DNA from: a virus
Direction: 5' to 3' (one strand)
IMG/VR virus record: IMGVR_UViG_3300034284_000578
Location: 44,577 to 108,576 of that record
Length of the DNA: 64,000 nt
Made by a program: the position numbers and the translations under genes. Below the pieces are notes generated by a model. It was given only the letters and a program-made list of their open reading frames with translations, was not told where the DNA came from and searched no databases. Below, one piece after another: positions 1,263 to 45,394 of this stretch. Positions within the stretch are counted from its first letter, which is position 1, and the number at the start of each line of letters is the position of its first letter.

Positions 1263-4200
1263 ATGCCAAATATTACTACATCAATAACTATTCAGCCCAC
1301 AATAAGCAGTTTGGATTCTTTAATAAATAGTCCGAATAATGCATATAATCAAGCATTGGGATCTTTGCCGGATGTTCCGCCACCCCCACCACCATCAACA
1401 GATGTGGTTATTGAAACCGATACAACAACAGATTTCGTATTCACTACAGACACAACAACAGATTTCGTATTCACTACAGACACAACAACAGATTTCGTAT
1501 TCACTACAGACACAACAACAGATTTCGTATTCACTACAGACACAACAACAGATGTTGTTGTTCCTCCATTGGATACTGATGTATCCGCATTAGACTACAC
1601 TGTTTGGGCAGCAGCATGGCAACGTGATGTAAATGTAAATGCACATTCTGTTGTTCCTATGATTTGGGTTGATCCTATGGGTGGATGGGGAGGACCAGGA
1701 ACTACAGATGTATTTACAGATGATGTGGTAAGTTCAACAAAATATAATCAATTTAAAACAACACTATTAAATGTACCAGAGGGAAGAAGAGTAATACAAC
1801 CAACATTTTGGGCAGCAGTTCCACCAAATTTAAATTGGTCACCTCTTACTTTTATTGATTATTATACTGCTTTGGATGGAACTACTTTTGATGGAAGAAA
1901 TATTTCTTGGACACCATGGCAAGAAAATATTATTGATGATGCAAAAACAAGTTTTAATCAATTTTTGGGTAGATGTAAAGCGGATGGTTTAACTTTTAAT
2001 TATATAACTGATAACACTTATTATGGTGATGGTGGTGCCCCAAGTATATGGAATTTATCAAAACCACCTGTAAGTGATAGAGATGCATACAAGATATACG
2101 TTTCAACCACCGGAAATGATAATTGGACTGGTCTATTCCCATATACTACAGGAACAAATGGACCAGTAAAAACAATTAAAAAGGCATCTGAACTTGCTAG
2201 AAATTATACAGGCAATAAAAACGTTGAAATTCAAATTCGTCAAGGTACATATCGTATGCTTGGCACAGATGCAAATCCTATCTTTTACTTAAATGAATCG
2301 AATAGTGGTAAAGAAGGAAAGTATATAACTTATAGACCATATAAGAATGAAACAGTCGTTATAAGTGGTGCTGAGGAAATAAGCCACAGTGCATTTACTT
2401 TAGTCAACTCTTCAGATTCTAAGTGGAGCAGAATATCGGCAGAAGCAAGAGGAAATGTTTATGTTGCTGATATTTCTGGTTATGATATTGGGCCCGGAAT
2501 TCCTTCCATGTGGAATGGTGGAAATATGGGTGGTGATGTTGGTAATGTCCAAGATATGCCTGCTTTGCCTGAATTGATTTTCAATGGCAAAACAATGACT
2601 GTTGCTAGATGGCCAAATAAAACATCACTCAATAGTAATGGATATACTTTTGGTGAATCTGCTGTAATTTCTTCTGTTGTCAGTAGTGGAACAAGCGGGG
2701 TGTGGTGTGTAGATCCAACTTATCTTGGAAGTAATGTCGATTTGTTAACAGATGGTCCGGCGGACGATGCAAGTTGTTATTGTGGTAGTGGTGCCCCACG
2801 TAATGAAAATTGCTTTCAAAATGCAACATTTACATATTCTTCAGATTATGATTCTGTTATTTCAACGTGGAGTAGTGCTGCAATAAATGATGGGATTTGG
2901 TTACACGGATTCTGGAGATGGGATTGGGCCGATGAAGCATATAAAGTCGTATCCATTAATACTGGTTCTAGAACTATTACTGTAGCATCAAAGAAGTCAC
3001 AATATGCTGTACAAAATTATTCACTTTGCAATCCAACAACTGGAGCATTAGATTCAACAGGAACATATTTATCCAATCCAACACCAAGACGTTGGTTTGC
3101 TCTTAATATTTTAGAAGAATTGGATACACCCGGTGAATATTACATCGATAGAGCCAACAAAAAGTTATATTTTTGGCCAACAGAAGCAATATCTGCTTCT
3201 TCAGAAATACGCATAACACACCGTGCAGTTGCTGGGCCCGGAGCAAAAGACGACGACGAGAATAGTTTTGAAGTTGGTTATCACCCAAACGGTTTCCCAG
3301 ACAGAACATGTTCAAAGTGTTTCCCATATAAAGGTTGGGAGGACACCAATTATGGTTGGTATCAACCCGGCGGCGCTTTGCAATCAAGACATGTTTACAA
3401 CAGCAAAAACACTTTAAAATCTCTATTTAAATTATACAAAACAAAAAATATTATAATTGAGGGATTAACTTTCCGTGATAGTGCTGGTAGTGGAATTGAA
3501 TTAAATCTATGCGAAAATGTAATTGTTCGCAAGTGCAAGATTTTTAACGTTAAAAAGGATGGAATAAATGCTATGGGTGGTAAAAATGTTACCATCGATA
3601 GTTGCACATTATATGATATTGGTAGAACTGCAATAATTAATACTGGCGGAAATAGACAAACTTTAGAACCAGCAAATAAATTGGTAACTAAATGTTCCAT
3701 TAAACGATGGAATAGAAATAAGTACAATTATGCTTCTGCTATAATTTTAAATGGCTGTGGCAACACTGCTTCTTATAATTTAATGTCTGATGGTAGTGCA
3801 GGTATACTGATTTATGGTGCAAATCTAACTGTAGAATATAACCATTTACATAATTTGATTGGAGAAACGGATGATGCTGGAGGAATATATGCAGGCAGAA
3901 ATACATCATTCATCAACAATGTAATCAGATACAATTTCTTTAACAACGTAAAAACTAATCTTCCGGGTGGTTATTATTACAGCAATTCAACAGTTCCGAG
4001 TGGTTGTGTTACTGCTGAAAATAAAAATACAGCAGGAACACACGGTGTTTATTTTGACGATTTAATGTCAAATTGTTCCGTTATTGGAAACGTTTTTTAT
4101 CAAATTGGTGGTGGTGAAGGATGTGCCGTATATTTTAATGGTGGTGTGAAAAACACTGTAAACAATAATCTTTTTATTGATTGTAATCGCGCATATGGTG

Positions 4201-7200
4201 CTGCGGTATCTACAAAAGGTTATTGGAATAATCATTTGAATGCTTCAAGAATAGCGATTGTTAATAATTTAAATTATCCTTGGTATGAAACTGGTGGACC
4301 GCTCGATTCAAATGGTAAAGAAACAAACGTTAGTGGATATAGTCCATACACTTGGTATGGTTCTGGTAATGGAAATACTTCTTGGGCTAATAACTCTTTA
4401 GCGGGAATAATGCCTGTTGTTGATATAACTGCCCCAATATATCAACAAACATGCCCACAATTATCTCAAATGATTTCTGTAAATGCTTCAAAGGTTGCAA
4501 CAATCGTTGAGGATGCTGCACAGTTTAAAAATAACACAAATAACAACGTAATAATTAATACTCCTTCGAATTCCGATAGGCTTGGAATTAACACCATTAG
4601 TGGTGAAACATGGTCGCAAGCAATATATGGAGGGTTTAATGTTGGTTCTGAATTAATAGAAGATACTAACACCGTTATTACTTTTGCTGAAAGAGCAAGT
4701 TTAAATTTCAAATTATCTGCTTCGGATTTGGCAACAATCAGAGCATCGTTGCCAACATTTGAAGATATTCCTTTTGAAAAAATACCAACATTATCTTATG
4801 TACCAGAATCTTATACTCAGCAAACATATTCAAACTGTGCTGTAGATAATAGACATTACACTTGCGAAAGAGATTTTTCAGATCCAGATGCTTTGGAGGC
4901 CATAGTAACTGATAGTAGATTTACAAGTACGGTAAATCCAGTAAATGGTAAAACGCTGTCGCAAGATTTTATGGATCGTTATAATGCTATTATTACTGAA
5001 ACAAATGGCATGGATCGTTCCCTATACACAAATCGAAGTTCCAGTTGGTATGTTTCACCAATAGCAACAGCATATAATGTACTATCTCCTAATTTTGGTT
5101 ACATTGTAGATGTTGGTGAACCATTTAGAATGCAACAGTTTCCGTGGTCCAATTCAAGTACAGATGCTGCAACTAGAGCATGGACTGGTGTGACTTTTGA
5201 TTGGGGAATTTATTATAGAACCACTTTCTTTAAGCAACCTCTTGCGAATAACGGTTATTCGAACGTCAAATATTCTATTGATTATTCTTATGCATTAAAT
5301 GCCGAAGAAGCACAATATGTTCAAGATCAATATGGTGGTTGGCAAGGAGACATAAGAGAAGATTACCCAGACGCTTTGTATACTCCACCATTATATGGTG
5401 AATTGGAAACTGGAATGTTTAATCGTTACACTTATGCAATAAATCCAGAAAATGATGATCAAAAATATTTGATGGGATTTGTGTGGGAAAATCAAGATTT
5501 ACCACAAGGTTATTTGAGATTTACAAGTCCAATTTGGGTTGCATTCTTAAGAGATATGAAACTATTAAGAGGCATAATTAGATCAAATCCAAACGCTTGG
5601 CAAAAATTGACACCTTGGATACCAAGTCCAGATGGTGGTGATATATCTGGTTCTAGAATGAGATATTCTAGAAGTCAAGGAGAAACGGCATTACAATTCT
5701 GGAAAGAAATGATTTTCCATGCTTGCTTACATGGAACACAACATTTTAATTATTGGAATTCTGGAGCCACATCTACAGTTGGTACAACAAATACATTAGA
5801 GTTGCACAATATTTTAGAAGAATGGCGTCAACGAAGCGGAAATAGTAGAGCGCAACCAGTAACAAATAGTAGAATTGCTGTTAATTCTTCTGTTATTATT
5901 AGTGGCGGTAGATTGCTTAGTAGTAACAAGTATCTTTGGAGAGTAACGGCTAAACCATCATCTTCAGTAACACTTAGAGCATACGGCAATTCTCTTGACA
6001 GAACCGACATTCCACAAACAATAACTTTAAATAATAACTCAAGAGGTGCTTGGCTTTTGACTGATAGTTCAGTTCCTCCAACTTATGTTCTTGATGAGGG
6101 TGGACAACAAGAAGATGTTGAATTGAAGTATATCACTTTGATGCGAGCAGATTATCATACTCAAATACACAGAGGTCGCGCCATATTTGGAGGCGCTTCT
6201 CACGACTATGGTAGTGGAATTGGATTTGATCAAAATGGTAAATCTCTCTCGGCTCTTCAATACATTTATAACACAGGTATTACATGGTCAGCTCACTCAG
6301 TTGGTAATTTGAATTGGTATTATGCTGCAAATTATAGATTAGATTCTAATGGAAATGCCATACCTGTCGTAGTTCGGACATCTCCCACAACAACCGTAAC
6401 TCACTGCAATAATGCATGTTATAGTAGTAGTGGTTGCTTCCAAGTACCAGGTATTCCTAGCATAATGTTTGTGAAATATATGTCCGAAACCGGCGAATGG
6501 GGAGCACCAATGCGTCCAAATGATCCATTCCCAAATGGTGCTGGTGGTAGTTTTGAATTTGTAACGGTAAATGGTGTTGTGTTTACAAAACAACCAACAG
6601 ATAGAGGAAAACCACTAGATTATAGTTTTACACATTATGGAAACAGCACCAATTCTTCTGGTATTCCTTATAGTTTCTGGGCAAGAACTCCAGCACAAAA
6701 TGGAAGAAATGATTTGGCATATGATTATACTTGGCAAGGAACAGTACAACTTAGACCTGGTCATGAACATGTCATTGACAGTAATAATTTAACAGTAAAA
6801 TTACGTCAACCTAGCGATGGTGCTCATCCTAAAAATGAACCGGGAAATATATGGAAGTATAAAGGTTTCGTTTTTGCACCAATAAGACAAGATGATGGAT
6901 GTGCTGATCATTTGTTTGTCGATCAATATAAAATGTTGTTAAACCTGTACAAAGCAGAGGAAGAATACAAATATTTTGTAATGAATTTGCCCACAGTACC
7001 TTCTTGCATTGTTCAAAGTGCAACTTGGAAATCTTTAGTTGCAGAAGAATTTGTAAATGGTGTGTTTAAACCAAAAGAAATATTTGTAAACTATGAAGAT
7101 GAATTAGTAGATCAAATTCGTTGTTTAAACATTACTGGCAGAACAGGTCCTAATAATTATGGTAGAATTAATAACCAACCACTAACCAATGAAATATGGG

Positions 7201-10200
7201 AAAGAATAGTTTCTTATATTAAATTGACCAGAAAAATGAATTATCATATTAAATCGGTATTTGGACCACAAGTTAAAATATCGCACTATGATATGTTTAA
7301 TTTACCATACTATCAGGAATGGAAACAGGGTTGGTGGCCAGCAAAAGATGGTCTTATATGGTCGACGGATTATTACACGGATATAGATAATGGTTGTCCA
7401 TTCTGTTCTGAATTGGACATAGATTACCCAGGTGATGTTGCGTATGCTGCTTTACCTTTAGAACAAAAACTAGTTTTTATACGCAAAGCAGTCGAAGCAT
7501 TACAGAGTAAAATATTTAAAATGGGTGCAGCGATTAGTAAAATGTGTCTATTTGAAAACGTAGAAGGACAACCAGATGTTCTTGACTTGAGACAAGAACT
7601 CTCAGAACTATTACCACAAATAGATCCTAATTTGTTTATTATTGAAGGATTAAATCACTATCCAAATTCTGCACATGGTGAAATATGTAATAACGTTCAC
7701 AAATATTATGCTGCAACTCCTAATGGATTTAATGAAGCCGCAGATGTAAATTTCAAAAATAATTCAGAAATAAACAAAAGTAGACAACAATCCATACACC
7801 ACAAAGAACAAGCCAGAGTTGGTATGTTTAATAATCAACGATCTGGTAAATTGTATTCTTGGTTTGTTCAGGGAGTTTGTGGTTCTGATGTGGCGGAAGC
7901 CATGTATGAATATTACAATTCCAATTTGAAAGATAATGCTGGATTTGTAAAATCTTGGACAGATACTAGCTTTGCTGCAACAGAAGTGTCTTCGTTCCCA
8001 TCTACAGAAACAGATCCAAATCATCTTGCTGGAGAAAGAATTTATAAAGTTAAATTTGCACCAAAAAATGCTTTAAGGAGAAGTTTTTTGAAACATATGC
8101 CATGGATTAACATGACAAATGATTTCTTAAATCGTTCTCAAATTGCAACAACAATCAAATATAAAGATGAGGTGATTTGGTCAGATAATAATATTTCCTC
8201 TGTTATAACTACAAATTTAAACGGAATAGCATCAGAACCAAAAGAATATCGCACTGAGGAGTATAACTTAAGACCATGTGCTCAAGGTGAATCACCAGTT
8301 TGTGTTTCAAATTGTCAACCAGGCGAAACACCAACGTTCAGTTGTAGAGATATAGTAGCAAATCCATATATAAAACCAAAACTGATAGAAGATAATTTTA
8401 AACTAAGAAACAATAATTTTGATACATTTAGTTGTAGTTCAGGAACTGCGGTAGTAGGGACCAATAAATCACCAAATTGTGTATCTTATTGCCATGTTGA
8501 TCCTGTTGTTCACGGTGCAGGTTCTACATCATATCCAACAACTAGTCTACTCAAAGCAAGAAGACACATTTATGGATTAGCGGTAGAGTATGCCGGTTAT
8601 GATGATATGGTAGCAATACCTCTTGAAGATTTTCCAAATGACATATATTGGGGTGGTTATCTGGGTGCAAATGGGGGCTTTGATCCATTTATCACCACAC
8701 CTCCTGCAACCGTATCGGCGGCTCAAGCACTTGATCGACCGGGTTGGCCTCATATTAGAGGAAGTGAAACTGCAAAACGAGCACAAGGATTAGGATTAAT
8801 TCTTGCTGCAAGAAAAGATTATTCAATTTACAAATACATTAAAAACCCAACACAAACAAATGTTAGAGATTGGCCACAACCAGCGGCAAACTTTGATGTG
8901 GACAGAAGACCAGGTATTGCTGCTACTATTACTGTATCTGGTGGACCAGGTGCTGAAGTAGTAATGGGCTATAGTGGTACAAACACAAATAGAGCAGAAT
9001 TCTTTAAGAAGTGTTTGGATGGAAGTGGAAATCCAATACCAAATGTTGGTTTCCAAAAACTTATTGATAACTATTTTACATGGAACTATGATAAGGGTGT
9101 TCGTAGATTTATGATTTGGACACCAGGCGGAACTGTATACCACACATATCCAAATGGTGAACGGCCAGCGGTATATACCTCTGCCATCACAAGTTCAATG
9201 GAACGTAGAATTTATGAAATTTATCAAGTCGCACAAGATGGTGTAACTACAGTAATTAATAAAATTGTAAATCCTGCCGAAGCATGTTGGAGAAATATAA
9301 CAACTCCAGTTGATGTATTCCCAACAGATGGACAAGTTAATACTCTTCTAATACCTGCAACTGTAGCAGAAGCAGAAAGTTATCCTCTTTGCTCTGATAC
9401 TGATTGGAATGGAACTTCACCTTGCTTTGATCCTGAAGGTAGAAAAAATGAAGTATTGACTTGTATGGAGCAATGGATTGATTCTCATCCAGACGCAGAT
9501 GTTGGTGTTTATATGGGTTATACAATACCAACCTTAAATGGTGAACCCGAAACTGGAACACCAACAATTATTGGTGATGCTGGTGGTGGTGGTTGGTTGC
9601 AAAATGCAGGAGATGCTGTTTGTTGTGAACCTGAGTGTTCTTTCAGTTTACTTTCAGATGCAAGTAATGGACTTCCTGCTAATAATCAAATCAGAAAACT
9701 GTTAGTAAATGGTAATACAATATATTCTGTAAATGCTGGTTCGGGTGGATTGTCTATATCCACTGATGGTGGTGCAACATATGTGACCAGAACAACAGCC
9801 AATGGTCTTGGAAGTAATACGATTAGTGATATTTTTGTTGTGGGTAATAATGTATATGCTGCAACTAACGGCGGATTATCTATCTCTACTGATGGTGGTC
9901 AAACTTTTATTAACAAAAGTGGTGGTTCTTCGGGTTTGGGGGGCACCAATTCAGCACATGTTGCTAGGATTAGTGGAGTTTTTGTAAAAAATAATACAAT
10001 TTATGCCGCAGTTGCGGGAGTTTCTGGTCCAACAGGAGGACAAACCGGGCTAGGTATTTCAACGGATGGTGGTGCTACTTTTACAATGCGAAATAGGACT
10101 AACAGCGGTTTAGGTGGTGGTAGCAGCGGTTCAGCTTGTAATACAGTATTTGTTGACACCGATAACAAAATTTATGTTGGAACACAGACCGGAGGATTGG

Positions 10201-11933
10201 GGATTTCAACCAATGGTGGCACCACCTTTACAATGAATGATTTTGGTGTCCAACTAGTTGACGTTCAACGTATAAAACAACTTAATAATAAACTTTATGT
10301 TGTTGCAAATAGAATTGGTATTTCTACTGATGGTGGACAAACATTTACCATTATTACACAAACAACTGCTCCGGGAATAATTCCTGGTTCTAATTTTATA
10401 GATTTGACACCAGTAACGAATGATATATTTTATACTAGTACGGGAACTGGTTTATACAAAACTATTAATAATGGACAATCTTTTACTAAAATTGATTTTG
10501 GTTACAATGGCTTATCACCAACATTAAATAGTTCCACAATAGAAATACACAACAATCTACTTTATATTGCTTCGTCGGCCGGTGGAGGAATAAGAGTAGG
10601 AACTAATTGTTTGCCAGCACCTTCTATTAGAGGATGGCAAATTCCAAATCCAGAAAATAATCCGGCACATGCTGCATTCTTACAATCCGAATTACAACCT
10701 TGGATTGATATTGGAATTAATTTCCTTGGAATGGATGTTGGAGTTGGTATGTTTAATTACCAATATGGTGGTGCATTGTCGTTTGGAGCAAATCCAGTAT
10801 CGAGAGAACCAGTTGGTGATTATAAACAATGGTTACAAACAACATTCCCAACCCTAAAAACAATCATTAATGAAGCAATACAACCCGACTGGAAAGCACC
10901 AGTATTGGATGAATTTAATAAACCAGTTGTTGGAAGAACTTATCCAAGAAAAACTCTGTTAAAGACAAATCGTGCAACAGAAGTATGTAAAGGTGTATTG
11001 GTTTCTTCTGAAACTTTGGGTGGAGAGCCTTGGAACACAGTATATACTGACGATTGCTGGCATAACAAAGGAAGAGAAAGATTTAGAAAACTAGATCCTG
11101 CTGGAAAAGATTACCGTACAGCGCAAGATCCTAATAATTTTGTTTATGCGCCAGGTGCATACCAATATTCTGCTTATATGATTCTTCTTAATGGTAATTT
11201 GAATTCATCAGAATGGAATATAGGATTACACAGTAATGCAAATACCATACAAGGTTGGGGTGGCTTAGATCCAAATAAAATGTGGTGTTGGTATAGAAAA
11301 AATACAGAAATTGGTTTATTTGTTGAAACCTTTTATCTGTTAAGTAAAACAATGAGAGATGCATATAGATTACAAAATCCAAATGAAGTGGATGCCGCTG
11401 GAAATAACACATATAATAATCTTTGGCAATTCACTCCAGCATGGCATGATAAAGGAATTTCTACACCTACTCCCACACCAAGTGGTGTTGCGTCTTGGGA
11501 TGGTAGAAATATATTGAGAGATAGTGATACCTACAACAAAGTAAGAAATGAAATGTTTGTCGAAGTTAAAAATTACATAGAAAGAGGATATGTTTATTGG
11601 ACTTCTCTCGGTAAAGATGCATTCCAAGTGCTTAAAGATGTACATTCTGATCTATTGAGTTATGTTGCCGGATTTGAATCCGACGACAATATCTTCCCAG
11701 AAGACGAAATTACAGAAAATCGTGCTACAGTTTTGTCGGACGATGTAAAAAATAATATAATAATTTCTACAGTATCTACAAAAGATAATGAAACCCTGTT
11801 GGCAACAGTAATAAATAATGAGGAAATAATTACAACAGATTTTGGTACAGATACTAGTCCGTTTGGAGATCCAGAATTAGTGGATTTTGAACCCAGCCCA
11901 GGGGAATTTGGTGGTGGTGGATTTGGACCATAA
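1263..11933 (+). CDS. Giant 3556-aa putative virion protein: parallel beta-helix (GH141/pectin-lyase-like) domain, Asp-box beta-propeller and probable GH-like barrels
   Basis: Beta-helix family motifs YVSTTGND..GP.KT, GFWRWDWAD, WFALNILEELDTPGEYYID, DDAGGIY, GVYFDD and IPFEKI lie at ~2090-4785. Six S-x-D/N-G-G-type Asp-boxes lie at ~9750-10490. The gene sits between gp7 and gp8. Confidence 0.7.
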   Translation: MPNITTSITIQPTISSLDSLINSPNNAYNQALGSLPDVPPPPPPSTDVVIETDTTTDFVFTTDTTTDFVFTTDTTTDFVFTTDTTTDFVFTTDTTTDVVVPPLDTDVSALDYTVWAAAWQRDVNVNAHSVVPMIWVDPMGGWGGPGTTDVFTDDVVSSTKYNQFKTTLLNVPEGRRVIQPTFWAAVPPNLNWSPLTFIDYYTALDGTTFDGRNISWTPWQENIIDDAKTSFNQFLGRCKADGLTFNYITDNTYYGDGGAPSIWNLSKPPVSDRDAYKIYVSTTGNDNWTGLFPYTTGTNGPVKTIKKASELARNYTGNKNVEIQIRQGTYRMLGTDANPIFYLNESNSGKEGKYITYRPYKNETVVISGAEEISHSAFTLVNSSDSKWSRISAEARGNVYVADISGYDIGPGIPSMWNGGNMGGDVGNVQDMPALPELIFNGKTMTVARWPNKTSLNSNGYTFGESAVISSVVSSGTSGVWCVDPTYLGSNVDLLTDGPADDASCYCGSGAPRNENCFQNATFTYSSDYDSVISTWSSAAINDGIWLHGFWRWDWADEAYKVVSINTGSRTITVASKKSQYAVQNYSLCNPTTGALDSTGTYLSNPTPRRWFALNILEELDTPGEYYIDRANKKLYFWPTEAISASSEIRITHRAVAGPGAKDDDENSFEVGYHPNGFPDRTCSKCFPYKGWEDTNYGWYQPGGALQSRHVYNSKNTLKSLFKLYKTKNIIIEGLTFRDSAGSGIELNLCENVIVRKCKIFNVKKDGINAMGGKNVTIDSCTLYDIGRTAIINTGGNRQTLEPANKLVTKCSIKRWNRNKYNYASAIILNGCGNTASYNLMSDGSAGILIYGANLTVEYNHLHNLIGETDDAGGIYAGRNTSFINNVIRYNFFNNVKTNLPGGYYYSNSTVPSGCVTAENKNTAGTHGVYFDDLMSNCSVIGNVFYQIGGGEGCAVYFNGGVKNTVNNNLFIDCNRAYGAAVSTKGYWNNHLNASRIAIVNNLNYPWYETGGPLDSNGKETNVSGYSPYTWYGSGNGNTSWANNSLAGIMPVVDITAPIYQQTCPQLSQMISVNASKVATIVEDAAQFKNNTNNNVIINTPSNSDRLGINTISGETWSQAIYGGFNVGSELIEDTNTVITFAERASLNFKLSASDLATIRASLPTFEDIPFEKIPTLSYVPESYTQQTYSNCAVDNRHYTCERDFSDPDALEAIVTDSRFTSTVNPVNGKTLSQDFMDRYNAIITETNGMDRSLYTNRSSSWYVSPIATAYNVLSPNFGYIVDVGEPFRMQQFPWSNSSTDAATRAWTGVTFDWGIYYRTTFFKQPLANNGYSNVKYSIDYSYALNAEEAQYVQDQYGGWQGDIREDYPDALYTPPLYGELETGMFNRYTYAINPENDDQKYLMGFVWENQDLPQGYLRFTSPIWVAFLRDMKLLRGIIRSNPNAWQKLTPWIPSPDGGDISGSRMRYSRSQGETALQFWKEMIFHACLHGTQHFNYWNSGATSTVGTTNTLELHNILEEWRQRSGNSRAQPVTNSRIAVNSSVIISGGRLLSSNKYLWRVTAKPSSSVTLRAYGNSLDRTDIPQTITLNNNSRGAWLLTDSSVPPTYVLDEGGQQEDVELKYITLMRADYHTQIHRGRAIFGGASHDYGSGIGFDQNGKSLSALQYIYNTGITWSAHSVGNLNWYYAANYRLDSNGNAIPVVVRTSPTTTVTHCNNACYSSSGCFQVPGIPSIMFVKYMSETGEWGAPMRPNDPFPNGAGGSFEFVTVNGVVFTKQPTDRGKPLDYSFTHYGNSTNSSGIPYSFWARTPAQNGRNDLAYDYTWQGTVQLRPGHEHVIDSNNLTVKLRQPSDGAHPKNEPGNIWKYKGFVFAPIRQDDGCADHLFVDQYKMLLNLYKAEEEYKYFVMNLPTVPSCIVQSATWKSLVAEEFVNGVFKPKEIFVNYEDELVDQIRCLNITGRTGPNNYGRINNQPLTNEIWERIVSYIKLTRKMNYHIKSVFGPQVKISHYDMFNLPYYQEWKQGWWPAKDGLIWSTDYYTDIDNGCPFCSELDIDYPGDVAYAALPLEQKLVFIRKAVEALQSKIFKMGAAISKMCLFENVEGQPDVLDLRQELSELLPQIDPNLFIIEGLNHYPNSAHGEICNNVHKYYAATPNGFNEAADVNFKNNSEINKSRQQSIHHKEQARVGMFNNQRSGKLYSWFVQGVCGSDVAEAMYEYYNSNLKDNAGFVKSWTDTSFAATEVSSFPSTETDPNHLAGERIYKVKFAPKNALRRSFLKHMPWINMTNDFLNRSQIATTIKYKDEVIWSDNNISSVITTNLNGIASEPKEYRTEEYNLRPCAQGESPVCVSNCQPGETPTFSCRDIVANPYIKPKLIEDNFKLRNNNFDTFSCSSGTAVVGTNKSPNCVSYCHVDPVVHGAGSTSYPTTSLLKARRHIYGLAVEYAGYDDMVAIPLEDFPNDIYWGGYLGANGGFDPFITTPPATVSAAQALDRPGWPHIRGSETAKRAQGLGLILAARKDYSIYKYIKNPTQTNVRDWPQPAANFDVDRRPGIAATITVSGGPGAEVVMGYSGTNTNRAEFFKKCLDGSGNPIPNVGFQKLIDNYFTWNYDKGVRRFMIWTPGGTVYHTYPNGERPAVYTSAITSSMERRIYEIYQVAQDGVTTVINKIVNPAEACWRNITTPVDVFPTDGQVNTLLIPATVAEAESYPLCSDTDWNGTSPCFDPEGRKNEVLTCMEQWIDSHPDADVGVYMGYTIPTLNGEPETGTPTIIGDAGGGGWLQNAGDAVCCEPECSFSLLSDASNGLPANNQIRKLLVNGNTIYSVNAGSGGLSISTDGGATYVTRTTANGLGSNTISDIFVVGNNVYAATNGGLSISTDGGQTFINKSGGSSGLGGTNSAHVARISGVFVKNNTIYAAVAGVSGPTGGQTGLGISTDGGATFTMRNRTNSGLGGGSSGSACNTVFVDTDNKIYVGTQTGGLGISTNGGTTFTMNDFGVQLVDVQRIKQLNNKLYVVANRIGISTDGGQTFTIITQTTAPGIIPGSNFIDLTPVTNDIFYTSTGTGLYKTINNGQSFTKIDFGYNGLSPTLNSSTIEIHNNLLYIASSAGGGIRVGTNCLPAPSIRGWQIPNPENNPAHAAFLQSELQPWIDIGINFLGMDVGVGMFNYQYGGALSFGANPVSREPVGDYKQWLQTTFPTLKTIINEAIQPDWKAPVLDEFNKPVVGRTYPRKTLLKTNRATEVCKGVLVSSETLGGEPWNTVYTDDCWHNKGRERFRKLDPAGKDYRTAQDPNNFVYAPGAYQYSAYMILLNGNLNSSEWNIGLHSNANTIQGWGGLDPNKMWCWYRKNTEIGLFVETFYLLSKTMRDAYRLQNPNEVDAAGNNTYNNLWQFTPAWHDKGISTPTPTPSGVASWDGRNILRDSDTYNKVRNEMFVEVKNYIERGYVYWTSLGKDAFQVLKDVHSDLLSYVAGFESDDNIFPEDEITENRATVLSDDVKNNIIISTVSTKDNETLLATVINNEEIITTDFGTDTSPFGDPELVDFEPSPGEFGGGGFGP
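1422..1553 (+). repeat. 30-bp tandem repeat (~4.4 perfect copies) encoding TTTDFVFTTD
   Basis: The unit acaacaacagatttcgtattcactacagac repeats head to tail, in frame, with no spacers. Confidence 0.95.
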
Positions 11934-11948
11934 TTAAAGGAACTATAA

Positions 11949-14426
11949 ATGGCAACATTCAGACAAAGAGGTAGAGAAAATAATGCAAAGGTGTTCATTA
12001 GTGATTTTGAAACTAAAACAAATAACACTTATTTTATTTCAATTGGCAATGCTGTAACAAGTCCAGTTGCCTCGGTTACACGAGCAGCAGATACCATGCA
12101 AGCAGATCAAAATGCATGGAACAATATGTTCTTTATGAACCAAATTTTCCGTTCAGATTTATCTCTAATGATAAAAAAGATAGATTGGATTTCCGGAACC
12201 AGATACGAGGCATTTGACAAAAATAAAAATCAATATGAATTGAACGAAAAGTTTTACGCATATAATTCTGAAAACAATAGTGTGTATCTTTGTTTAGCAA
12301 GTCCCGAAAATGAAAACAGTGTAAGCACCTATCCACCAACAACTCAAGGTTTAAACCCAGAAGTTAAACCCGATGGATATACTTGGAAATTTTTGTATCA
12401 AGTTCGAGAAGAGAATCTAGAAAAATTTGATTATCCCGGATTTCTACCAATAGAAAATGTAGGTGTTGAATTATATACAGACGAAAGAGTTTTACAACAA
12501 AATGTCGAGGTAAACACGGTAAAGGGTGCAATTGAATCGATTGATGTGGTTCAACAAGGTACTTCTTTCCCAGAAATAGTAAATAATAATTTTGTCTCGA
12601 ATTTGTATTATGGTTATGCTACAGAAGATACTGTTGAGGGGGATGATATTCATACAGAATATTATTTTGACGCAGATCTTGAAGGAAGAACAGAACTTTC
12701 AAGAGTTGCCAATTTTTATGATAATAACTATATAATACATTTTAAAAATGGTTACACTGCATTAATAGAAGAAACAGAAACAGTTACAAATCCCACATCG
12801 GGCAATCCTGCTATCAGATTTAAAATATGTAATCTATTGTACGATTTAGGTTCATTTTCAGGTGATATTGAATTTATAATACCACCACTAAACGAACCAT
12901 TTTGTATTATTCCTTATATAAGAGTAATTGGTAATGGTTCGGATGCGGTAGCAATACCTGTATTTGATCTTGATAAGAAAATTACAAGAGTAGATTTAAT
13001 CTATAATGGAAAAAACTATACTTATGCTGAAGCAAAGTTTTTAGTAAATTCCACTACAATTTTAAGCCCAGTTTTGGGATTAAATGGATTGACATCCAAT
13101 ATAGTAAAACTTCTTGGTGCAAAACATGTAATGATATCCAAGAAAATTAAACCAATTACTACATTATCACAATCAGATCCAATACTATATTCTTCTGTAG
13201 AAAATACAGGAGTTGTATATAGCGGAGATCAGTATCTAGATGTTGTTTCTGAAAATACATATTACACTCAATTTTGTTTAATTAAAAATCCTAAGATTTT
13301 AAATATCAACACCAATTTACAAGAAATTGCCGGTTCGACTATTTCCGAAATACGAGAAATGGTAATAGAATCCATAGATCCCAAAGTAACTATAGTTGTT
13401 GGTACTCCACTTAATCCATATACAAATAGTACAAACTTTTTTGAAGTAGATGACATAATTGTTCGGGGACCAGATTCTAGACCAGATCAATTTCAAGCAA
13501 AAATAACAAATGTTTCTGTAAGTGGAATCAGTACGACTGTAGAGTGCGATTTAATTAATGGTGCATTTGAAACATATTCTGGTTATAGAATAAAAAACAA
13601 TAAAAATACCTCTACAGATTTTTCCGATGATGAGTTTTTTCAATTTTTAGATTGTGAAGAAAATTGTTCAAATTCCATTTATGCAACCTATACCAATGTT
13701 TTTAATCCCACAGACTTTTCTTCGGATGATGCGCTTTTTGGGACAAGCAGTTATAAAAGTGCAGAAATATACCCACCCTTAAGTGGATATGTTTTTGTTA
13801 ATCCTGTATATCCAAATAGAGCAAAAGTAAAAGTAAAAGATGCCGAACTTGGTTTCTTGCCGGCAAGATATGTAGATGGGGAATTTGTGCCTGGTGAAAC
13901 TATAATTGGATTAAAAGATGTATTGGGTGTACCAACCATCACGGCAAAAGGTTCTCTAGTATCAATTAGTGAACCCACAGAAATATTGTCGGAAACCTCA
14001 TTTGGTTATGCTTATATTTTAAAATGTACCGTCAATCGTCCGGGTGCAGACACTATATACGATTTAGTTAATGAAGATGGTGTTTCTTTAGAAACTAATA
14101 CCATTATAAAACAACCAAGCACTGGTGCTATTGGAAAAATAATTAGAGTGGGATTACCAACAGGCACGGATGGTTCCAGCACTGTATATCTTTATGTTAA
14201 CAATTATAACGATAAATCTTTTTATGCTTCTTCATCAATACTACAAACAATTAATGATTTATACGATCCAACAACTGCTGAAAATATGAATATTTACGTT
14301 CAGGAAGTTATTTTTAATCCAAGACTTGTTCCATACTCTGGTGATTTGTTATATATAAATGATGCAGGTCCTGTGCAAAGACGAGTAGAAAATTCTGAAA
14401 TAATAAAACTTTTAATAGAGTTCTGA
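11949..14426 (+). CDS. gp8: Baseplate wedge subunit gp8
   Basis: Motifs W..M.....I, VYLCL and DGYTWKFLY, plus C-terminal YSGDLLYI....VQR....E.IKLLIEF, typical of cyanophage-type gp8. Confidence 0.85.
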   Translation: MATFRQRGRENNAKVFISDFETKTNNTYFISIGNAVTSPVASVTRAADTMQADQNAWNNMFFMNQIFRSDLSLMIKKIDWISGTRYEAFDKNKNQYELNEKFYAYNSENNSVYLCLASPENENSVSTYPPTTQGLNPEVKPDGYTWKFLYQVREENLEKFDYPGFLPIENVGVELYTDERVLQQNVEVNTVKGAIESIDVVQQGTSFPEIVNNNFVSNLYYGYATEDTVEGDDIHTEYYFDADLEGRTELSRVANFYDNNYIIHFKNGYTALIEETETVTNPTSGNPAIRFKICNLLYDLGSFSGDIEFIIPPLNEPFCIIPYIRVIGNGSDAVAIPVFDLDKKITRVDLIYNGKNYTYAEAKFLVNSTTILSPVLGLNGLTSNIVKLLGAKHVMISKKIKPITTLSQSDPILYSSVENTGVVYSGDQYLDVVSENTYYTQFCLIKNPKILNINTNLQEIAGSTISEIREMVIESIDPKVTIVVGTPLNPYTNSTNFFEVDDIIVRGPDSRPDQFQAKITNVSVSGISTTVECDLINGAFETYSGYRIKNNKNTSTDFSDDEFFQFLDCEENCSNSIYATYTNVFNPTDFSSDDALFGTSSYKSAEIYPPLSGYVFVNPVYPNRAKVKVKDAELGFLPARYVDGEFVPGETIIGLKDVLGVPTITAKGSLVSISEPTEILSETSFGYAYILKCTVNRPGADTIYDLVNEDGVSLETNTIIKQPSTGAIGKIIRVGLPTGTDGSSTVYLYVNNYNDKSFYASSSILQTINDLYDPTTAENMNIYVQEVIFNPRLVPYSGDLLYINDAGPVQRRVENSEIIKLLIEF

Positions 14427-14433
14427 GGAAAAT

Positions 14434-16368
14434 ATGACTTTTAAGAATCCAGATTTTAGTTCAAATTCACCATATTATGATGATTTTGAGGAAGCAAAGA
14501 ACTTTCTAAAAATACTTTTTAAGCCTGGATATGCAGTTCAAGCCAGAGAACTGACACAACTGCAAACTATTTTGCAATCTCAAGTTGCAAAATTTGCTGA
14601 TCATATTTTTCAAGATGGTAGTCAAGTTTTTGGTGGTAAAATACAAATTGTTAATACACCTTATGTTCGTTTAGAAAAATATACACAATCCACCATAGGT
14701 GCTACGACAAATTTAGCAAACGATTATTTAACAAATCTTCCTACCAATTTATTAAAAGTTTATAGCAAATCTGGAACAACATTTACCGAATTAGCAACAG
14801 TAAAAATATCGTATTTTGAACCATCCGGTTATTCTGCTGCTGATGATTATGCTGTTGCATTTTATAATGTAATTTCTATTGCAGAAACTCAAAACGGTAC
14901 ATTTGATATGCAACGGGAATATTACATTGGTTCTTCCACTGCTGGACCATTTGTAAAAGTTATAAATCCAACACAACAAACAACAACACCAGTTCAATAT
15001 ACAGTTGAACCATTCGGAAATGGTTACTTAGTAACTGTGGATGATGGTATTTTTTACATAGATGGTTATTTTGTAACTACACAAAAACAAACAATATCTC
15101 TATTTAAAAAATCTTCTCAGTATGAATCTGATTTTAGTATTGACACCGGATTAACATATAACTGGGCAAGTCAAGGTGTCAGATTATTTAATAAACCATC
15201 ACACAGAATTGGTTATACTATAAATCGTCAAATTGTTACTGCTACAGAAGATAGTACTCTAAATGATCCAGCGCGAGGATTTTATAATTACAATGCACCG
15301 GGTGCCGATAGATACAAAATTTCTCTAGAACTTACTCAAATTGAATATCGTTCTGGTATTGTAGATATTGATAATTATGTTACAACCGATTTCATCCAAA
15401 TTTTAAGAACAACAAATGGTGTAGTAGATTACATCAAAGATAAATCTTCTTATTCGCAGATTTTAGATTTATTTGCAAAAAGAACTCAAGACGAATCTGG
15501 TTCTTATACAGTTAAACCATTCATTGCTGAAGTAAAAAATCATTTAAGAAAAGATAGATATGTTTTAACAGTTAGCAATGATTCAATTACAAGTATGTTT
15601 CCGGCTACATCTTTTAGACCAGCAATAGATGGTTATGTGTGGGCGGGTTCTGCTGCATTTAATCCATATACTTCACCTTCATTAGCAAATGAACCATTTG
15701 TTATTGCAAAAATTGTGGATGTCATTGGTGATTATGATGCAAGTTTAGCAACACCAAAATCATTAAAAATTGTGGTCGAATTGCAAAATGCAAATAAATT
15801 TGCATTTGGACCTGCTTCGTATTTCTTAAAAAATACAAGCACTGGTGCCATAACTGGATTTAATATAAGTGGTGTTGAATTACAAATAGATTCTAAAGGA
15901 ACCTATTCCTTATCAGATGTGCCTGTTGGTGATCCAACTAAGATGACAATTACAATGCAACCCGGAAAGGCATATGTTTATGGTTATAATTATGAAACAT
16001 TTGCACCAAGAAGCGTTGATTATGTTATAAATGGGAATCAAACAGATATAAAGGTAGTTACTGGTCAAAATGTAGAATTTGAAGTTGGAAATTATGTTAA
16101 AGGTGTATTTGTACCAAGAATAACAACAAATACTATAAATTATGAACAAATGCCTTCTTTGGATTTGGTTGATGTTGATACAAATACATTTTTGATTTAT
16201 CCTGCAAATACAACTACAGCAGAAAGAAGAATATATGCATGGGCCCCATTCCTTGGAGCAAGTGAAGATATACAAGGTGACATGATTGATATGGTGTATT
16301 TAACCGATAGTGAAGGATTAGATGGTGCGAGATTTCCACACGAAAGCGTAATCTTTGTGGCCGAATAA
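14434..16368 (+). CDS. DUF4815/VrlC-like virion structural protein, N-terminal part
   Basis: PYYDDF....NFLKILFKPGYAVQARELTQLQTILQ, NAPGADRYKI, KRT.DESGSYTV and PGKAYV.GY motifs; follows gp8. Confidence 0.85.
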   Translation: MTFKNPDFSSNSPYYDDFEEAKNFLKILFKPGYAVQARELTQLQTILQSQVAKFADHIFQDGSQVFGGKIQIVNTPYVRLEKYTQSTIGATTNLANDYLTNLPTNLLKVYSKSGTTFTELATVKISYFEPSGYSAADDYAVAFYNVISIAETQNGTFDMQREYYIGSSTAGPFVKVINPTQQTTTPVQYTVEPFGNGYLVTVDDGIFYIDGYFVTTQKQTISLFKKSSQYESDFSIDTGLTYNWASQGVRLFNKPSHRIGYTINRQIVTATEDSTLNDPARGFYNYNAPGADRYKISLELTQIEYRSGIVDIDNYVTTDFIQILRTTNGVVDYIKDKSSYSQILDLFAKRTQDESGSYTVKPFIAEVKNHLRKDRYVLTVSNDSITSMFPATSFRPAIDGYVWAGSAAFNPYTSPSLANEPFVIAKIVDVIGDYDASLATPKSLKIVVELQNANKFAFGPASYFLKNTSTGAITGFNISGVELQIDSKGTYSLSDVPVGDPTKMTITMQPGKAYVYGYNYETFAPRSVDYVINGNQTDIKVVTGQNVEFEVGNYVKGVFVPRITTNTINYEQMPSLDLVDVDTNTFLIYPANTTTAERRIYAWAPFLGASEDIQGDMIDMVYLTDSEGLDGARFPHESVIFVAE

Positions 16369-16404: not shown

Positions 16405-19400
16405 ATGGCATTAACAACAGAAACAGATAACGGTTATAAGAATGGTTTGTCAAACGAACTCATGAGAGTTTCGGGTGAAACTAGTCAAGCAACATACACT
16501 GCGAGTTGTTTTTCTGACAAGGTTCCCGATGTCATTAGAATTAACTTTTTAGATCCATTTAGAGGGAACTTTAGAACTGCTTACGATCCAACCCGAACAA
16601 ATCTGGATGAAAGTTTAGATGGACAAAGAGGGTTTCGTGAAGAAATATTTTTAGAAGCAACAAGTCAAGGTAATTATGATATTTTAAAACATTTTAGAGT
16701 TAAACAAATTGACGGTTTAACTGGTAATGTTGTAGCAGAAGGTATTCCTTTAAGATGGGTTCCACCATCAGCAGATGGAAGAGGTGGAACGTTATTCATA
16801 AAGGTACTATATCAAGATTTACCAAATCCTACAACTTTTAATCAAGCAAATGGTGTAATATATTGTGACGCAATTGATCAATTTACATATGGTGGGAAAA
16901 CATATAGTGGTAATCCAATATCCGTTGGTACTACAATTAAATCTATACAAACAGTTTCTAACGTTTATAAACTAACAAGCGTTGAGGCTTATAATAGTGC
17001 CCCATCCACTCTACCTTGCGTTGGTGGTACAGAAGGTGTAATTACTTTGGGTAAAGGAATATATCAAAGCGGTCAAAGAGTAGTTTTGAAAGAATTATTA
17101 GCCGCAAATGGTTCTCCATGTACTAGTAGTTTTTCAGGTACGGGTGTAGTAATATCATCCACAATTGATACACTATCACAAAAAGTTTCGGTTTTCGTGG
17201 AGTTTGATCAACCACTAAACGATACTGCTGGAGAGAACGGCAATTGTTCGAATTGTACAAATACATCTGAAAGACTAGTTCTCTGCACAGGAGATGCTTC
17301 TGGTAGTTGCTTATCATCATGTTGCATATATTCTATCGATAACGTTAGAAAAATAAGTACACCAGAGTGTGGTACTGTACAAAAAATATATTTTTCGGAT
17401 GAGATTGCAGAAACCGGAGAATTTGTGCCTGGTAGAGAACTCTATCAATGGAAATATGAAAATTGTGGAAACCATCCCGGTAATGCGGCATTTTATACCA
17501 CAAAACAAGCAGATGCTCAATCTAAAATTGTCGGTGAATATTTAAATTGGGATACGGCGACTAAAGTTCTTTATGTTCTTTGTCCAAATTCTATAATGCA
17601 AATTAAGTACGGAAACGTATATCAATTAACAGAAACAGGAACTTTATTGTCTAGAGGTAGTGGTATATCTCCAACCAGTAAATTTGAAAGAAGAACAGGT
17701 TCATTTGTAAATCTGAGAAATACCACAGAAACACCAACCTATATTTCTGGTAGAGAATATCAACAAGTTTGGGACAGTACATCAGGAGGAGAGTTACTGG
17801 TTCAAACATTGACCAGTACTTCAACTTCATATAATACAAACTATGAATATGTAATTGGTGAAACTGTATTGCAAGCACTTACTGAAGATTTTGATGGTAA
17901 TGTTGTTGGTTATGCTGCTGGTACTGTTGTAGATTGGCAACCAAATACAACGGCTCTCGATAGTGTTCCAAGTATATTAACTATTAAAAGAAAGAAAATT
18001 GGTACAGAAAATCCTTTATTCATTGATACAAATGATCCATTAATTCCAGCCACAACAGAACTTGCTCGTTTTAGATTTGGTACAAATCTTGCACCAACCA
18101 CTACAGGTACACTATTAAAAAATACAAAAAGAAATATTCTTCCTTTGCGTGTGTTTGAAACAGTAAATACCACAGGAAATATAGCAACAGACTGGTATGA
18201 TTTTAGTTCTGAAAATGTTGTTCAGAACTCCACAACAACTGAACTAACTGATACTGTTGTCGTTGCTTCTATAGGAACGATTGCTAAAGGATCATCAATA
18301 GGTTCTACCAGAATAAAGGCAATAAAATTAAATGCAGGAAATGTTTACGATATTTCGTTGATGAATACAAATATATTCTATAATGAGCCTGTTTCATTTA
18401 AAGATGTAACTCAAATTGGTAAATCAAATATTTTAACAAATACTACTGGTGTGTCATATAGTTCAATTGAACCAGTTATAGAAGTACAACAAGACTATAT
18501 TAGTGGTGAATATGTAACTAGAATATTTAATCCTACCTCAGATAAACAAATAATACCATTACCAGCAGGCGATGTAATTGAAAATGTAACGTCTGGATCT
18601 GGTAATTTTGGTTCTACTTTATTAACAATACAACAAATTTTTGATGTAAATTTCCCATCAAATAGTGCAGAAGTTTTCATTGAAGGTAATATTAATGGTG
18701 CAGAATTTCCTAGTACATTTTCCACAACATATTCATTTGCAATAGATCAACTTGGTAATAGTTTAAATTTGGTTAAATATAACAATTTAGCAGCTGCTAA
18801 TGCTGAACCTTCAGACAACAATACACTGTATTATGATGTAATTGTAGCAGATGATGCAAATGTTGGTATAAAATTTAAGAAAAAATCAACAAGTACTGTT
18901 ACTAGTATTATCTTTGGTTCTGAAGTAAAGTGTTCTGCATCAAATGTTATAAAGGAAAAACGACAAAAAACATTTAATGCTACAACTTATTTGACGTACA
19001 ATACGTCTGGGCCATTTAAAGATAAATGGACTGCGATTATTCCCATTACAGGCGCTATTGATGTTTATAAATTAAATTCTGTTTTTGGTGTTTCCGGAAC
19101 ATCTTCACTTACAATAATTACAAACAATGTAAAAGATTGGTTCGGTATTTCAAAGGAAACAGACGATTATTTGTATAAACCAAGTATTTTAGTTCTAAAC
19201 GGAAACGGTGTCACAACAAATACAAATACTGATCCAAATCAAGGACCAATAACACCAACTGTACCAACTTTTGGTTTATTTGAGCGAGAAGGACTAACCG
19301 AAAATTATAGAGTAAAAATTAGAGTTAATGGTCTTGGATATGAAGGACCAACAGGTGGGGGAATTGTAGTCAGAGAATCTTATAAAGATACTAATGGTAA

Positions 19401-22284: not shown

Positions 22285-22478
22285 GCGAAATACCAATAAC
22301 TGGTAGAGACGATCTAAAGAGAGATCGTAAAACTGGAGCAGTTTTATCATGTGATCGAAATAAACTAATGGAAGCAAAAAGAATTAAGCGAGAAAACGAT
22401 AGATATATAACATTAGAAAAAAGAGTTAGAGAATTAGAAAATATAATTCAATCATTACTAAAAGGCAATAACAAATGA
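22281..22478 (+). CDS. Small conserved T4-like protein with a coiled-coil C-terminus
   Basis: LKRD.KTGAV...D motif; ATGA overlaps with both neighbours; usual position after the DUF4815 gene. Confidence 0.7.
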   Translation: MSEIPITGRDDLKRDRKTGAVLSCDRNKLMEAKRIKRENDRYITLEKRVRELENIIQSLLKGNNK

Positions 22479-43930: not shown

Positions 43931-45394
43931 ATGGACCCTAATCGTCAAATGATCACAGAATCTGCCCGCAAAAAGTGGCAACCAATCCTTGAGCACAAGG
44001 CATTGCCAGAAATCAAGGACAGTTATAAAAAGACTGTAACAACAATCCTCTTGGAGAACCAAGAGCGCGCACTCCGCGAATCATACCAAGGTATTGCCGG
44101 TACAGGACTCGGTAACATTGGTGGGTTTGAAGCCGGTGCAACCTCAACAACTGGTACTGGTATCGATTCATTCGATCCAATCATGATCAGTTTGGTTCGT
44201 CGCGCTATGCCAAATTTGATGGCTTACGACATCGCTGGTGTTCAACCAATGAACGGCCCAACCGGCTTGATCTTCGCAATGAAGACAAAGTATCAAAACG
44301 CTGGTACAGGAACAATTGGTGCCCGCGCTGGTAATGCCAGTGAAGCACTGTTCAAGGAAGCCAACACAAGTTGGTCCGGTGAAACTGGTGCTGCTGGTGA
44401 CATGGGAGATATCTTCCAAGATGACGCCGGTTCAACCGATGGACGCTTCGAAGCCGGTCGTGGATTTGCCACATCTAAGGGTGAAAAACTCGGAGATGGT
44501 ACAAATAACTTTAACGAAATGTCTTTCACAATCGAAAAGACAGCCGTTACAGCCAAGACTCGCGCCCTCAAGGCAGAGTACACAACAGAACTCGCTCAAG
44601 ACCTCAAGGCCGTTCACGGACTTGACGCTGAGACAGAGTTGGCTAACATCCTCTCAACCGAAATCATGTTTGAAATCAACCGCGAGTTGGTTCGTCAAAT
44701 CTATGATGTCGCTAAGTTGGGTTGCCAACAAGCCGACCTCGCCGGTAAGGCTTCAGGTGGTGGTTTGAATGGTGCCGCAGGTGGTGGTACATATAACCTC
44801 GAACTCGACTCCGATGGTCGTTGGAGTGCTGAAAAGTTCCGTGGTTTGACCTTCCAAATCGAGCGCGAGTGCAACGTAGTAGGTGCTGAGACTCGTCGTG
44901 GTAAGGGTAACTTTATCATCACAAGTCCAGACGTTGCTGCTGCCCTCAGTATGAGTGGTTTGCTCGACTTCTCTCCAGCCTTCAGTGGTGCTCTTAACAC
45001 AGACGTTAATGGCAACACCTTCGCTGGTACACTCCACGGTGGACGTATCAAGGTTTACATTGATCCATATTCAATGCCAACCCACACAGAAACCTTCTCA
45101 CCAATCAATTTCGTATGCGTAGGATATAAGGGAACAAGTCCATACGACGCTGGTCTCTTCTACTGCCCATACGTTCCATTGCAAATGGTAAGAGCCGTTG
45201 ATACAGGTACATTCCAACCAAAGATTGGTTTCAAGACCCGTTATGGTATGGTAAGTAACCCATACGTTCTCAATGCAAGCAGTCTCCCAGACGCTGAAAC
45301 ATTGACACGTAGACGTAATCAATACTACCGCATCTTCCGCGTAGATAACCTACACGGTAACGACGCCACATACAACCCAACAACCGCTAACTAA
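43931..45394 (+). CDS. gp23: Major capsid protein gp23
   Basis: LVRRAMPNLMAYDIAGVQPM.GPTGLIFAM, RALKAEY..ELAQDLKAVHGLDAE.EL and FQPKIGFKTRYG motifs. Confidence 0.99.
   Translation: MDPNRQMITESARKKWQPILEHKALPEIKDSYKKTVTTILLENQERALRESYQGIAGTGLGNIGGFEAGATSTTGTGIDSFDPIMISLVRRAMPNLMAYDIAGVQPMNGPTGLIFAMKTKYQNAGTGTIGARAGNASEALFKEANTSWSGETGAAGDMGDIFQDDAGSTDGRFEAGRGFATSKGEKLGDGTNNFNEMSFTIEKTAVTAKTRALKAEYTTELAQDLKAVHGLDAETELANILSTEIMFEINRELVRQIYDVAKLGCQQADLAGKASGGGLNGAAGGGTYNLELDSDGRWSAEKFRGLTFQIERECNVVGAETRRGKGNFIITSPDVAAALSMSGLLDFSPAFSGALNTDVNGNTFAGTLHGGRIKVYIDPYSMPTHTETFSPINFVCVGYKGTSPYDAGLFYCPYVPLQMVRAVDTGTFQPKIGFKTRYGMVSNPYVLNASSLPDAETLTRRRNQYYRIFRVDNLHGNDATYNPTTAN

Follow-up and report, generated by a model that had tools for sequence, protein, structure and literature searches.

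Whole β-helix and propeller modules inserted within a giant scaffold protein encoded among the baseplate genes of an uncultured T4-like myophage

How can a single phage protein hold what look like complete enzymes inside other domains, and what might such an arrangement do for the virus? The question is raised by a gene in a 64,000-nucleotide stretch of the IMG/VR virus record IMGVR_UViG_3300034284_000578 (positions 44,577 to 108,576; hereafter the window, meaning the whole stretch of DNA that was analysed), where the ORF (open reading frame) list of the window gives one open frame at 1263–11933 on the + strand, beginning with ATG and encoding 3556 residues plus a stop codon. The earlier note on this DNA had described the product as a baseplate-linked protein in which a bacterial-type β-helix interrupts an α/β domain and a Cys-bounded propeller interrupts a glycosidase-like barrel, and had proposed that it is a multi-catalytic depolymerase; each of the landmark motifs quoted there was found at its position. 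We find that the core of the protein is a ~2200-aa scaffold into which two complete foreign modules are inserted. The overall picture that we favor, with a probability of roughly 0.65, is that of a giant scaffold attached to the baseplate, whose plug-in modules bind, and possibly cleave, a host-surface glycan.

The first insert lies between the two halves of a domain referred to below as barrel 1. The N-terminal half (aa 105–270; 1575–2072, on the + strand as are all segments of the protein described here) contains approximately strands 1–4, with the landmark VWAAAW at aa 114, and ends with FNYITD (aa 245–250). It is followed by a right-handed β-helix resembling family 141 of the glycoside hydrolases (GHs), at aa 278–1175 (2094–4787), which runs from IYVSTTGND (aa 278; nt ~2094) to IPFEKIP (aa 1169–1175; nt ~4787). 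The C-terminal half of the barrel and a β-sandwich then occupy aa 1190–1612 (4830–6098), marked by EAIVTDSRF (aa 1212) and HFNYWN (aa 1494–1499). When aa 1176–1960 alone was searched against 1.8 billion representative proteins and the matches were then checked for aa 85–280, 78 relatives were retrieved, in more than 30 of which a homolog of aa 105–270 is located directly upstream, with a gap of only ~10–40 residues and no insert. Examples of the contiguous barrel include P0017 (residues 49–223 and 237–659), P0018 (468–628 and 639–1062), and P0019 (49–227 and 242–631), in addition to the distant members P0022, P0026, P0030, P0039, P0047, and P0058. The junctions match residue for residue: the query proceeds from FNYITDN..SIWNLSKPP through the β-helix to NRHYTC..EAIVTDSRF, and the same flanks in P0017 are linked by a 30-residue Cys-rich loop. 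P0017 (2220 aa, encoded on a 159-kb contig) has the same N-terminus as the query, is collinear with it minus both inserts, and is its natural insert-free counterpart; no match to P0017 was found in IMG/VR.

The nested region of the query spans 1510 aa, and the barrel fold was tested on P0047, a natural insert-free member of 560 aa (three cluster members, 560–561 aa), with 37 family sequences. The resulting model (predicted local distance difference test score (pLDDT), 84.6; predicted template modeling score (pTM), 0.88) consists of one (β/α)8 barrel and a β-sandwich, the latter being equivalent to approximately residues 1527–1612 of the query. An exhaustive structural search with this model gave GH42 β-galactosidases (Z-scores, 14.4, 13.6, and 13.6) and a GH164 mannosidase (Z-score, 13.8), with many GH5, GH140, and GH35 enzymes next (Z-scores, 10–12). 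The top matches in Foldseek were likewise all glycosidase barrels, each of them weak, and nothing was found among the BFVD viral structures at E ≤ 0.001. Single GH5 catalytic domains span residues ~20–470 of the model (Z-score, ~10–11), and this alignment takes in the equivalents of query residues 105–270 and 1190–1500; therefore, the flanks of the β-helix are the two halves of one (β/α)8 barrel. Counted along the model, the barrel strand that precedes the insertion loop is the fourth, which carries FNYITD. The loop appears in P0047 as a surface coil of lower confidence (residues ~165–180) and would be situated on the catalytic face, as judged from the general geometry of TIM barrels. At the sequence level, the barrel-1 family gave nothing meaningful against profiles of the PDB (E ≥ 0.31), and neither barrel 1 nor the C-terminal unit described below scored above cutoff for any curated GH family in Pfam or NCBIfam. 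With more than 30 contiguous relatives and the fold of P0047 at hand, the flanks cannot be independent domains, and the claim that the β-helix interrupts an α/β domain forming a single GH-like barrel is upheld; a true intra-barrel insertion is very probable. A further member of the barrel-1 family is encoded directly after the regA and clamp-loader genes of a T4-like contig (L088:7800–9755), which shows that the family also occurs outside that block of baseplate genes.

The inserted β-helix is a complete module of bacterial type with a family-typical end, as had been described. It was recognized by the Pfam model Beta_helix (PF13229) at 33.8–40.7 bits (cutoff, 25.9), and the GH141 insertion domain (PF21231, GH141_M) scored 15.6–22 bits, below its cutoff of 27. 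A three-sequence profile searched against the PDB matched 9rx2, a parallel β-helix repeat protein for which no paper mentioning it was found, in two stretches (E = 8.5e-16), and the GH141 founder BT1002 (5mqp), an enzyme with a catalytic Asp pair, with E = 3.9e-6 in an alignment limited to the N-terminal ~95 residues; pectate lyase and polygalacturonosidase were also among its PDB matches. A search through prokaryote genomes, one for each species, confirmed at least 518 bacterial relatives from 600 candidate stretches, and the best bacterial matches among those listed cover residues 4–903 of the 916-aa module at 24–29% identity. Because these matches extend over nearly the whole module, its completeness and bacterial type are confirmed, and its boundary is confirmed by a stand-alone phage protein (P0015, from contig L007) that ends three residues beyond the same IPFE.IP motif. 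The taxonomy of the matches had been put forward as a clue to the host; this was rejected, since those listed spread over many phyla (Planctomycetota–Verrucomicrobiota–Chlamydiota (PVC) bacteria, Hydrogenedentota, Armatimonadota, Paenibacillus, and others) at 24–29% identity. At L007:7167–10535, after gp6-like and gp7-like genes, a stand-alone protein of 1122 aa carries an N-terminal region without a Pfam match and then the same β-helix module.

In a second lineage, the barrel loop holds another module. P0008 and P0014 (from contig L006) contain a Cys-bounded RCC1 propeller in that very loop, and in this lineage the β-helix is found ~700 residues downstream, between the motifs ..NGVFKP.. and ..PLT.E.W... 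The middle region of the query (aa 1613–2420; 6099–8522) had no family match in Pfam and NCBIfam scans, and its neighbors in the ESM Atlas were noise. In P0006, P0007, and P0016, an RCC1 propeller of ~550 aa is positioned at query residue ~1822–1827, and in some relatives a β-helix occurs at query aa ~1946–1972. Thus, comparison of the inserts across relatives defines four sites, each of which is either empty or occupied by one of three module types: a β-helix or RCC1 propeller in the barrel loop, an RCC1 propeller at the second site, a β-helix at the third, and a BNR propeller at the fourth.

The fourth site lies in the C-terminal unit of the query. This unit consists of an α/β part of an orphan family (aa 2421–2786; 8523–9620), with the landmarks GVRRFMIW (aa 2612) and VGVYMGY (aa 2747), and a second part (aa 3117–3500; 10611–11762), with INFLGMD (aa 3152) and IINEA (aa 3201). 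Between the two is a Cys-bounded propeller of the BNR/Asp-box type (aa 2787–3116; 9621–10610), delimited by CC..C at aa 2787–2792 (nt 9621) and C3116 (nt 10610). Six Asp-box motifs (S-x-D-x-G-x-T-W/F/Y) are located at aa 2833, 2875, 2933, 2982, 3021, and 3067, and the excised segment was recognized by the Pfam model BNR (PF02012) at 31.2 bits (cutoff, 27). A model of the propeller, locally of moderate confidence, matched solved propellers over model residues ~392–720 with Z-scores of 22–25.5, and its strand pattern suggests that it probably has seven blades, of which six bear an Asp-box. Sialidases (GH33/34/83) have a six-bladed propeller with an Arg triad and a Tyr/Glu nucleophile. No sialidase was present among the top 50 structural matches, the best being virginiamycin B lyase, a hybrid two-component sensor domain, and WD40 proteins, so that the modeled propeller appears closer to propellers of binding or sensor type than to sialidases.

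The propeller is present only in the closest kin of the query (P0003 and contigs L001–L003), and is absent, with the flanks contiguous, in at least 12 relatives, among them P0002, P0004, P0005, P0006, P0008, P0010–P0013, P0017, and P0019; therefore, it represents a recent, lineage-specific insertion, and that an insertion event took place is almost certain. It is also the fastest-diverging segment of the protein. Relative to L002, in which it is hyper-divergent, 88 of 324 residues are changed (27%) and the synonymous divergence (dS) is 0.71, as compared with 0.16–0.19 in the flanks, suggesting either cassette exchange by recombination of the insert or accelerated turnover. The ratio of nonsynonymous to synonymous divergence (dN/dS) of 0.31 indicates that the segment is still constrained. 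In the comparison of the query with L001 and L003, dN/dS was 0.03–0.34 in all major segments, and this purifying selection implies that every module matters to the phage. A metagenomic protein of 2101 aa (P0009) has an N-terminal RCC1 propeller and several tandem BNR propellers that are 30–38% identical to that of the window, and is a possible reservoir of propeller cassettes.

What the propeller is inserted into is less clear than that it is inserted. AlphaFold2 modeling of aa 2400–3556 with 10 sequences gave a pLDDT of 44.8 and a pTM of 0.35, and only its propeller and some barrel-like elements could be used. The propeller enters at a Gly/Pro-rich stretch of ~40 residues, no confident model joins the two flanks, and no homology of the unit to any barrel was found: it had no match to PDB profiles at E ≤ 10, word-seeded homolog searches retrieved nothing but fragments of these giant proteins and no relatives outside their family, and hhalign revealed no relationship of the C-terminal unit or the middle region to barrel 1 or to each other, the sole match being an overlap artefact. 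These features would suit a propeller that occupies the linker of two distinct domains always found side by side, and not the interior of one barrel; we hold this linker arrangement to be a real possibility, though short of an even chance. What it leaves less well explained is that the C-terminal flanks always co-occur and are contiguous in the relatives, and that the low-confidence model displays an alternation of helices and strands on both sides of the insert. An N-E pair closing a predicted strand (in IINEA) is invariant in the unit, as is a later Glu that follows a hydrophobic strand, and this, read from the sequence, may be a clan-A-like pattern; the nearest named clusters in the ESM Atlas are GH-like barrels at only 0.82–0.84, which is a lead and not evidence. 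Insertion of the propeller into a single domain has an even chance or slightly better. Of the earlier description, the insertion of a six-Asp-box propeller between flanks that are contiguous in relatives has stood, and the view of these flanks as one GH-like barrel stands as a possibility only. Taken over both sites, the occurrence of insert-free relatives bears out the claim that whole domains had been inserted within other units.

Whether the inserted and interrupted modules act as enzymes is a further question. Immediately beyond strand 4, members of the barrel-1 family share the near-invariant motif FDYxxDDxE, with the Glu in 34 of 36 sequences, at which the query and its kin read FNYITDN..G. 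This Glu is absent in the query, P0003–P0005, P0007, and P0017, and the query is also without the second Asp of the DDxE motif. Likewise, the motif GNxHxxExN of the bacterial β-helices (Asn in 79 of 79 and His in 73 of 79) is replaced by GANLTVEYN in the query, with D566 changed to Asn, and the motif drifts in several phage copies. Such losses, together with a propeller whose best structural matches are not sialidases, argue for a non-catalytic adhesin or decoration, in which enzyme-like folds have been kept as binding or structural modules that recognize glycans and degrade nothing. We regard this explanation as quite plausible, if less than evenly probable, for it has to accommodate the retention of most other near-invariant residues of the β-helix (E619, D621, E625, D629, E858, D871, D932, and D933) and of the invariant N-E and later Glu in the C-terminal unit, as well as the purifying selection on all modules; moreover, the residues lost from barrel 1 and the β-helix are at most candidate catalytic residues. 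In barrel 1, other invariant residues are kept (D205, D1217, R1219, E1482, and H1486, of which E1482 and H1486 are located in the helix after the seventh barrel strand), and close to the strand ends the family conserves a pair of Arg residues, a Tyr, and acidic residues. Enzymes of clan GH-A have their acid/base Glu at the end of strand 4 and their nucleophile Glu at the end of strand 7.

At the other extreme is the multi-catalytic depolymerase of the earlier note, in which at least two active modules would jointly digest a complex capsule or sheath. The clan-A fold of barrel 1, the full-length GH141-like β-helix, and a language-model search in which GH-like barrel families are the nearest neighbors of the C-terminal unit (at 0.82–0.84 only) are in line with this proposal, but motif residues are lost in two modules, and no GH family of CAZy, Pfam, or NCBIfam was reached at curated threshold. 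We consider joint digestion of this kind unlikely, and equally so that two or more of the modules are active enzymes: with the barrel-1 Glu and the Asn and His of the β-helix missing in the query, and a propeller that appears not to be sialidase-like, this part of the earlier proposal is not supported.

The genomic setting links the giant gene to the baseplate. The upstream neighbor (2–1258, +), which is open at the 5' end of the window, matches the PHROGs of a gp7-like baseplate wedge protein, and the downstream neighbor (11949–14426, +) is a baseplate wedge subunit (phrog_438), so that the baseplate link suggested by the earlier note is corroborated on both sides of the gene. A gp7-like gene also precedes the giant gene in L006, and the order of wedge gene, gp7-like gene, and giant gene or β-helix gene is found again in L006 and L007. 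Tail sheath, terminase, and neck genes are encoded downstream in the window, the tail sheath being 45–46% identical to those of pelagimyophages Mosig and HTVC008M. The source phage is thus an uncultured T4-like myophage with the giant gene in its baseplate gene block. Structural and host-recognition regions of pelagimyophages and cyanomyophages are plastic and hypervariable (PMC7029224), and the giant gene, within the baseplate block, belongs to a region of this kind. The giant protein has no match in PHROGs. Its gene was unmatched in a megablast search, neither barrel 1 nor the C-terminal unit had a tblastn match in 50,697 deposited phage genomes, and a scan of the window for paralogs of any module of the giant protein found none elsewhere in it.

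In the near-identical contigs L001 and L003, the giant gene is likewise one ORF. In L002 (91% identical), one in-frame TGA at L002:10628–10630, corresponding to aa ~1036 (nt ~4368) of the window, where a Gly codon is present, divides the gene into two ORFs, of 1035 and 2520 aa, that share one frame (..ETAVS*YSPY versus ..ETNVSGYSPY in the window); an error, a nonsense mutation, and read-through are all possible explanations of the TGA. Further downstream in the window, a DUF4815/VrlC-type protein is encoded by two consecutive ORFs (14434–16368 and 16405–22284), with Pfam DUF4815 on the first and phrog_358 on both. Two large ORFs without a PHROG or Pfam match (22475–27079, 1534 aa; 27082–29664, 860 aa), located between the VrlC-type and neck genes, are candidates for further host-recognition proteins.

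The ends of the protein suggest how it might be held in the particle. The N-terminal ~45 residues (MPNI..NPNN..NQAL; 1263–1397) are conserved and common to P0014, P0017, P0018, and P0019, and are followed by a Thr/Asp-rich linker (1422–1553) encoded by a 30-nt tandem repeat of 4.4 copies with 100% matches, which specifies decapeptides of the type TTDFVFTTDT; the repeat array of P0014 is longer and more varied, and the copy number therefore probably varies. A low-complexity acidic/Gly-rich tail (11763–11933) closes the chain. Being common to relatives that differ in architecture, the N-terminus would be the virion-attachment end, and the conserved residues and the repeat linker probably tether the protein to the periphery of the baseplate wedge. 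The carbohydrate-active-like modules may then bind, and perhaps cut, the host surface polysaccharide, and the plug-in modules, the propeller above all, would set the specificity, which could be retuned by module swapping. More tentatively, at somewhat under an even chance, we propose that fixed scaffold loops in a family of giant baseplate proteins of aquatic T4-like phages, one of them the catalytic-face loop of a GH-like TIM barrel, are docking ports at which whole enzyme-like or propeller domains are inserted, exchanged, or moved, so that host range would diversify by nested swapping and not by exchange of the C-terminal tip.

Several considerations weigh against this picture of a baseplate-attached, glycan-binding scaffold. 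The motif residues missing from barrel 1 and the β-helix make catalysis doubtful, which lowers the likelihood of activity and does not exclude it. Both virion location and glycan binding are read from gene position and fold only. The barrel model is that of a homolog with ~25–30% identity and not of the query chain itself, and the predicted nesting requires both ends of a long β-helix to return to one loop. For the C-terminal unit, the model is of low confidence, so that the propeller could separate two domains.

Glycosidase barrels with inserted domains are already known, as are β-helix depolymerases on phage tails. What is new here is the scale, a 900-aa module being held within a barrel loop; the fact that relatives carry different, interchangeable inserts at one and the same loop; and a pair of scaffold families that have neither a Pfam, PHROG, or NCBIfam model nor a counterpart in deposited phage genomes. 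Host recognition by phages is commonly viewed as an exchange of fiber tips or spike heads. In the phages compared here, a conserved barrel has one internal loop that either is empty or carries a 900-aa β-helix or an RCC1 propeller. The natural series of P0017 (no insert), the query, and P0014/P0008 offers a way to ask how huge domains are grafted into a TIM-barrel loop without destroying the barrel, how such grafts retune receptor specificity, and what the two scaffold families do. It may also be of use in annotating myophages from marine and fresh waters, whose baseplate and host-recognition regions contain large genes that are still unnamed.

Among known systems, the clan GH-A enzymes with a C-terminal β-sandwich (GH42, 4ucf and 1kwk; GH164, 6t5o; and GH5) are those that the barrel-1 family model resembles, with 332–391 aligned residues for GH42 and 345 for GH164. 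Unlike them, the barrel-1 family has no sequence-level match to GH families in Pfam, NCBIfam, or PDB profiles, and in the query the Glu that this family conserves after strand 4 is missing, and a 900-aa domain is accommodated in the strand-4 loop. The β-helix shares an N-terminal cap and a β-helix core with GH141 (BT1002 α-L-fucosidase, 5mqp), 9rx2, and the pectate lyase/polygalacturonase folds, and matches the GH141 insertion domain weakly, below cutoff; it differs from them in size (~900 aa versus ~580–670 aa in bacterial relatives) and in that the similarity to 5mqp is restricted to the N-terminal ~95 residues. With phage tailspike and tail-fiber depolymerases, the giant protein has in common a β-helix with a carbohydrate-active fold on a tail- or baseplate-associated protein, and its gene is located where the structural genes are plastic. 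In contrast to these depolymerases, the query has no PHROG match, its scaffold domains are unmatched in the deposited phage genomes, and its β-helix is internal, nested in a TIM barrel of a 3556-aa chain, and not the terminal module of a trimeric spike. Glycosidase barrels with whole-domain insertions in a catalytic-face loop are exemplified by domain B of GH13 and PA14 in GH3. The giant protein resembles these in having a whole domain in a barrel loop, but its inserts are a full enzyme-like module or a propeller, and the same loop is varied or empty in its close relatives.

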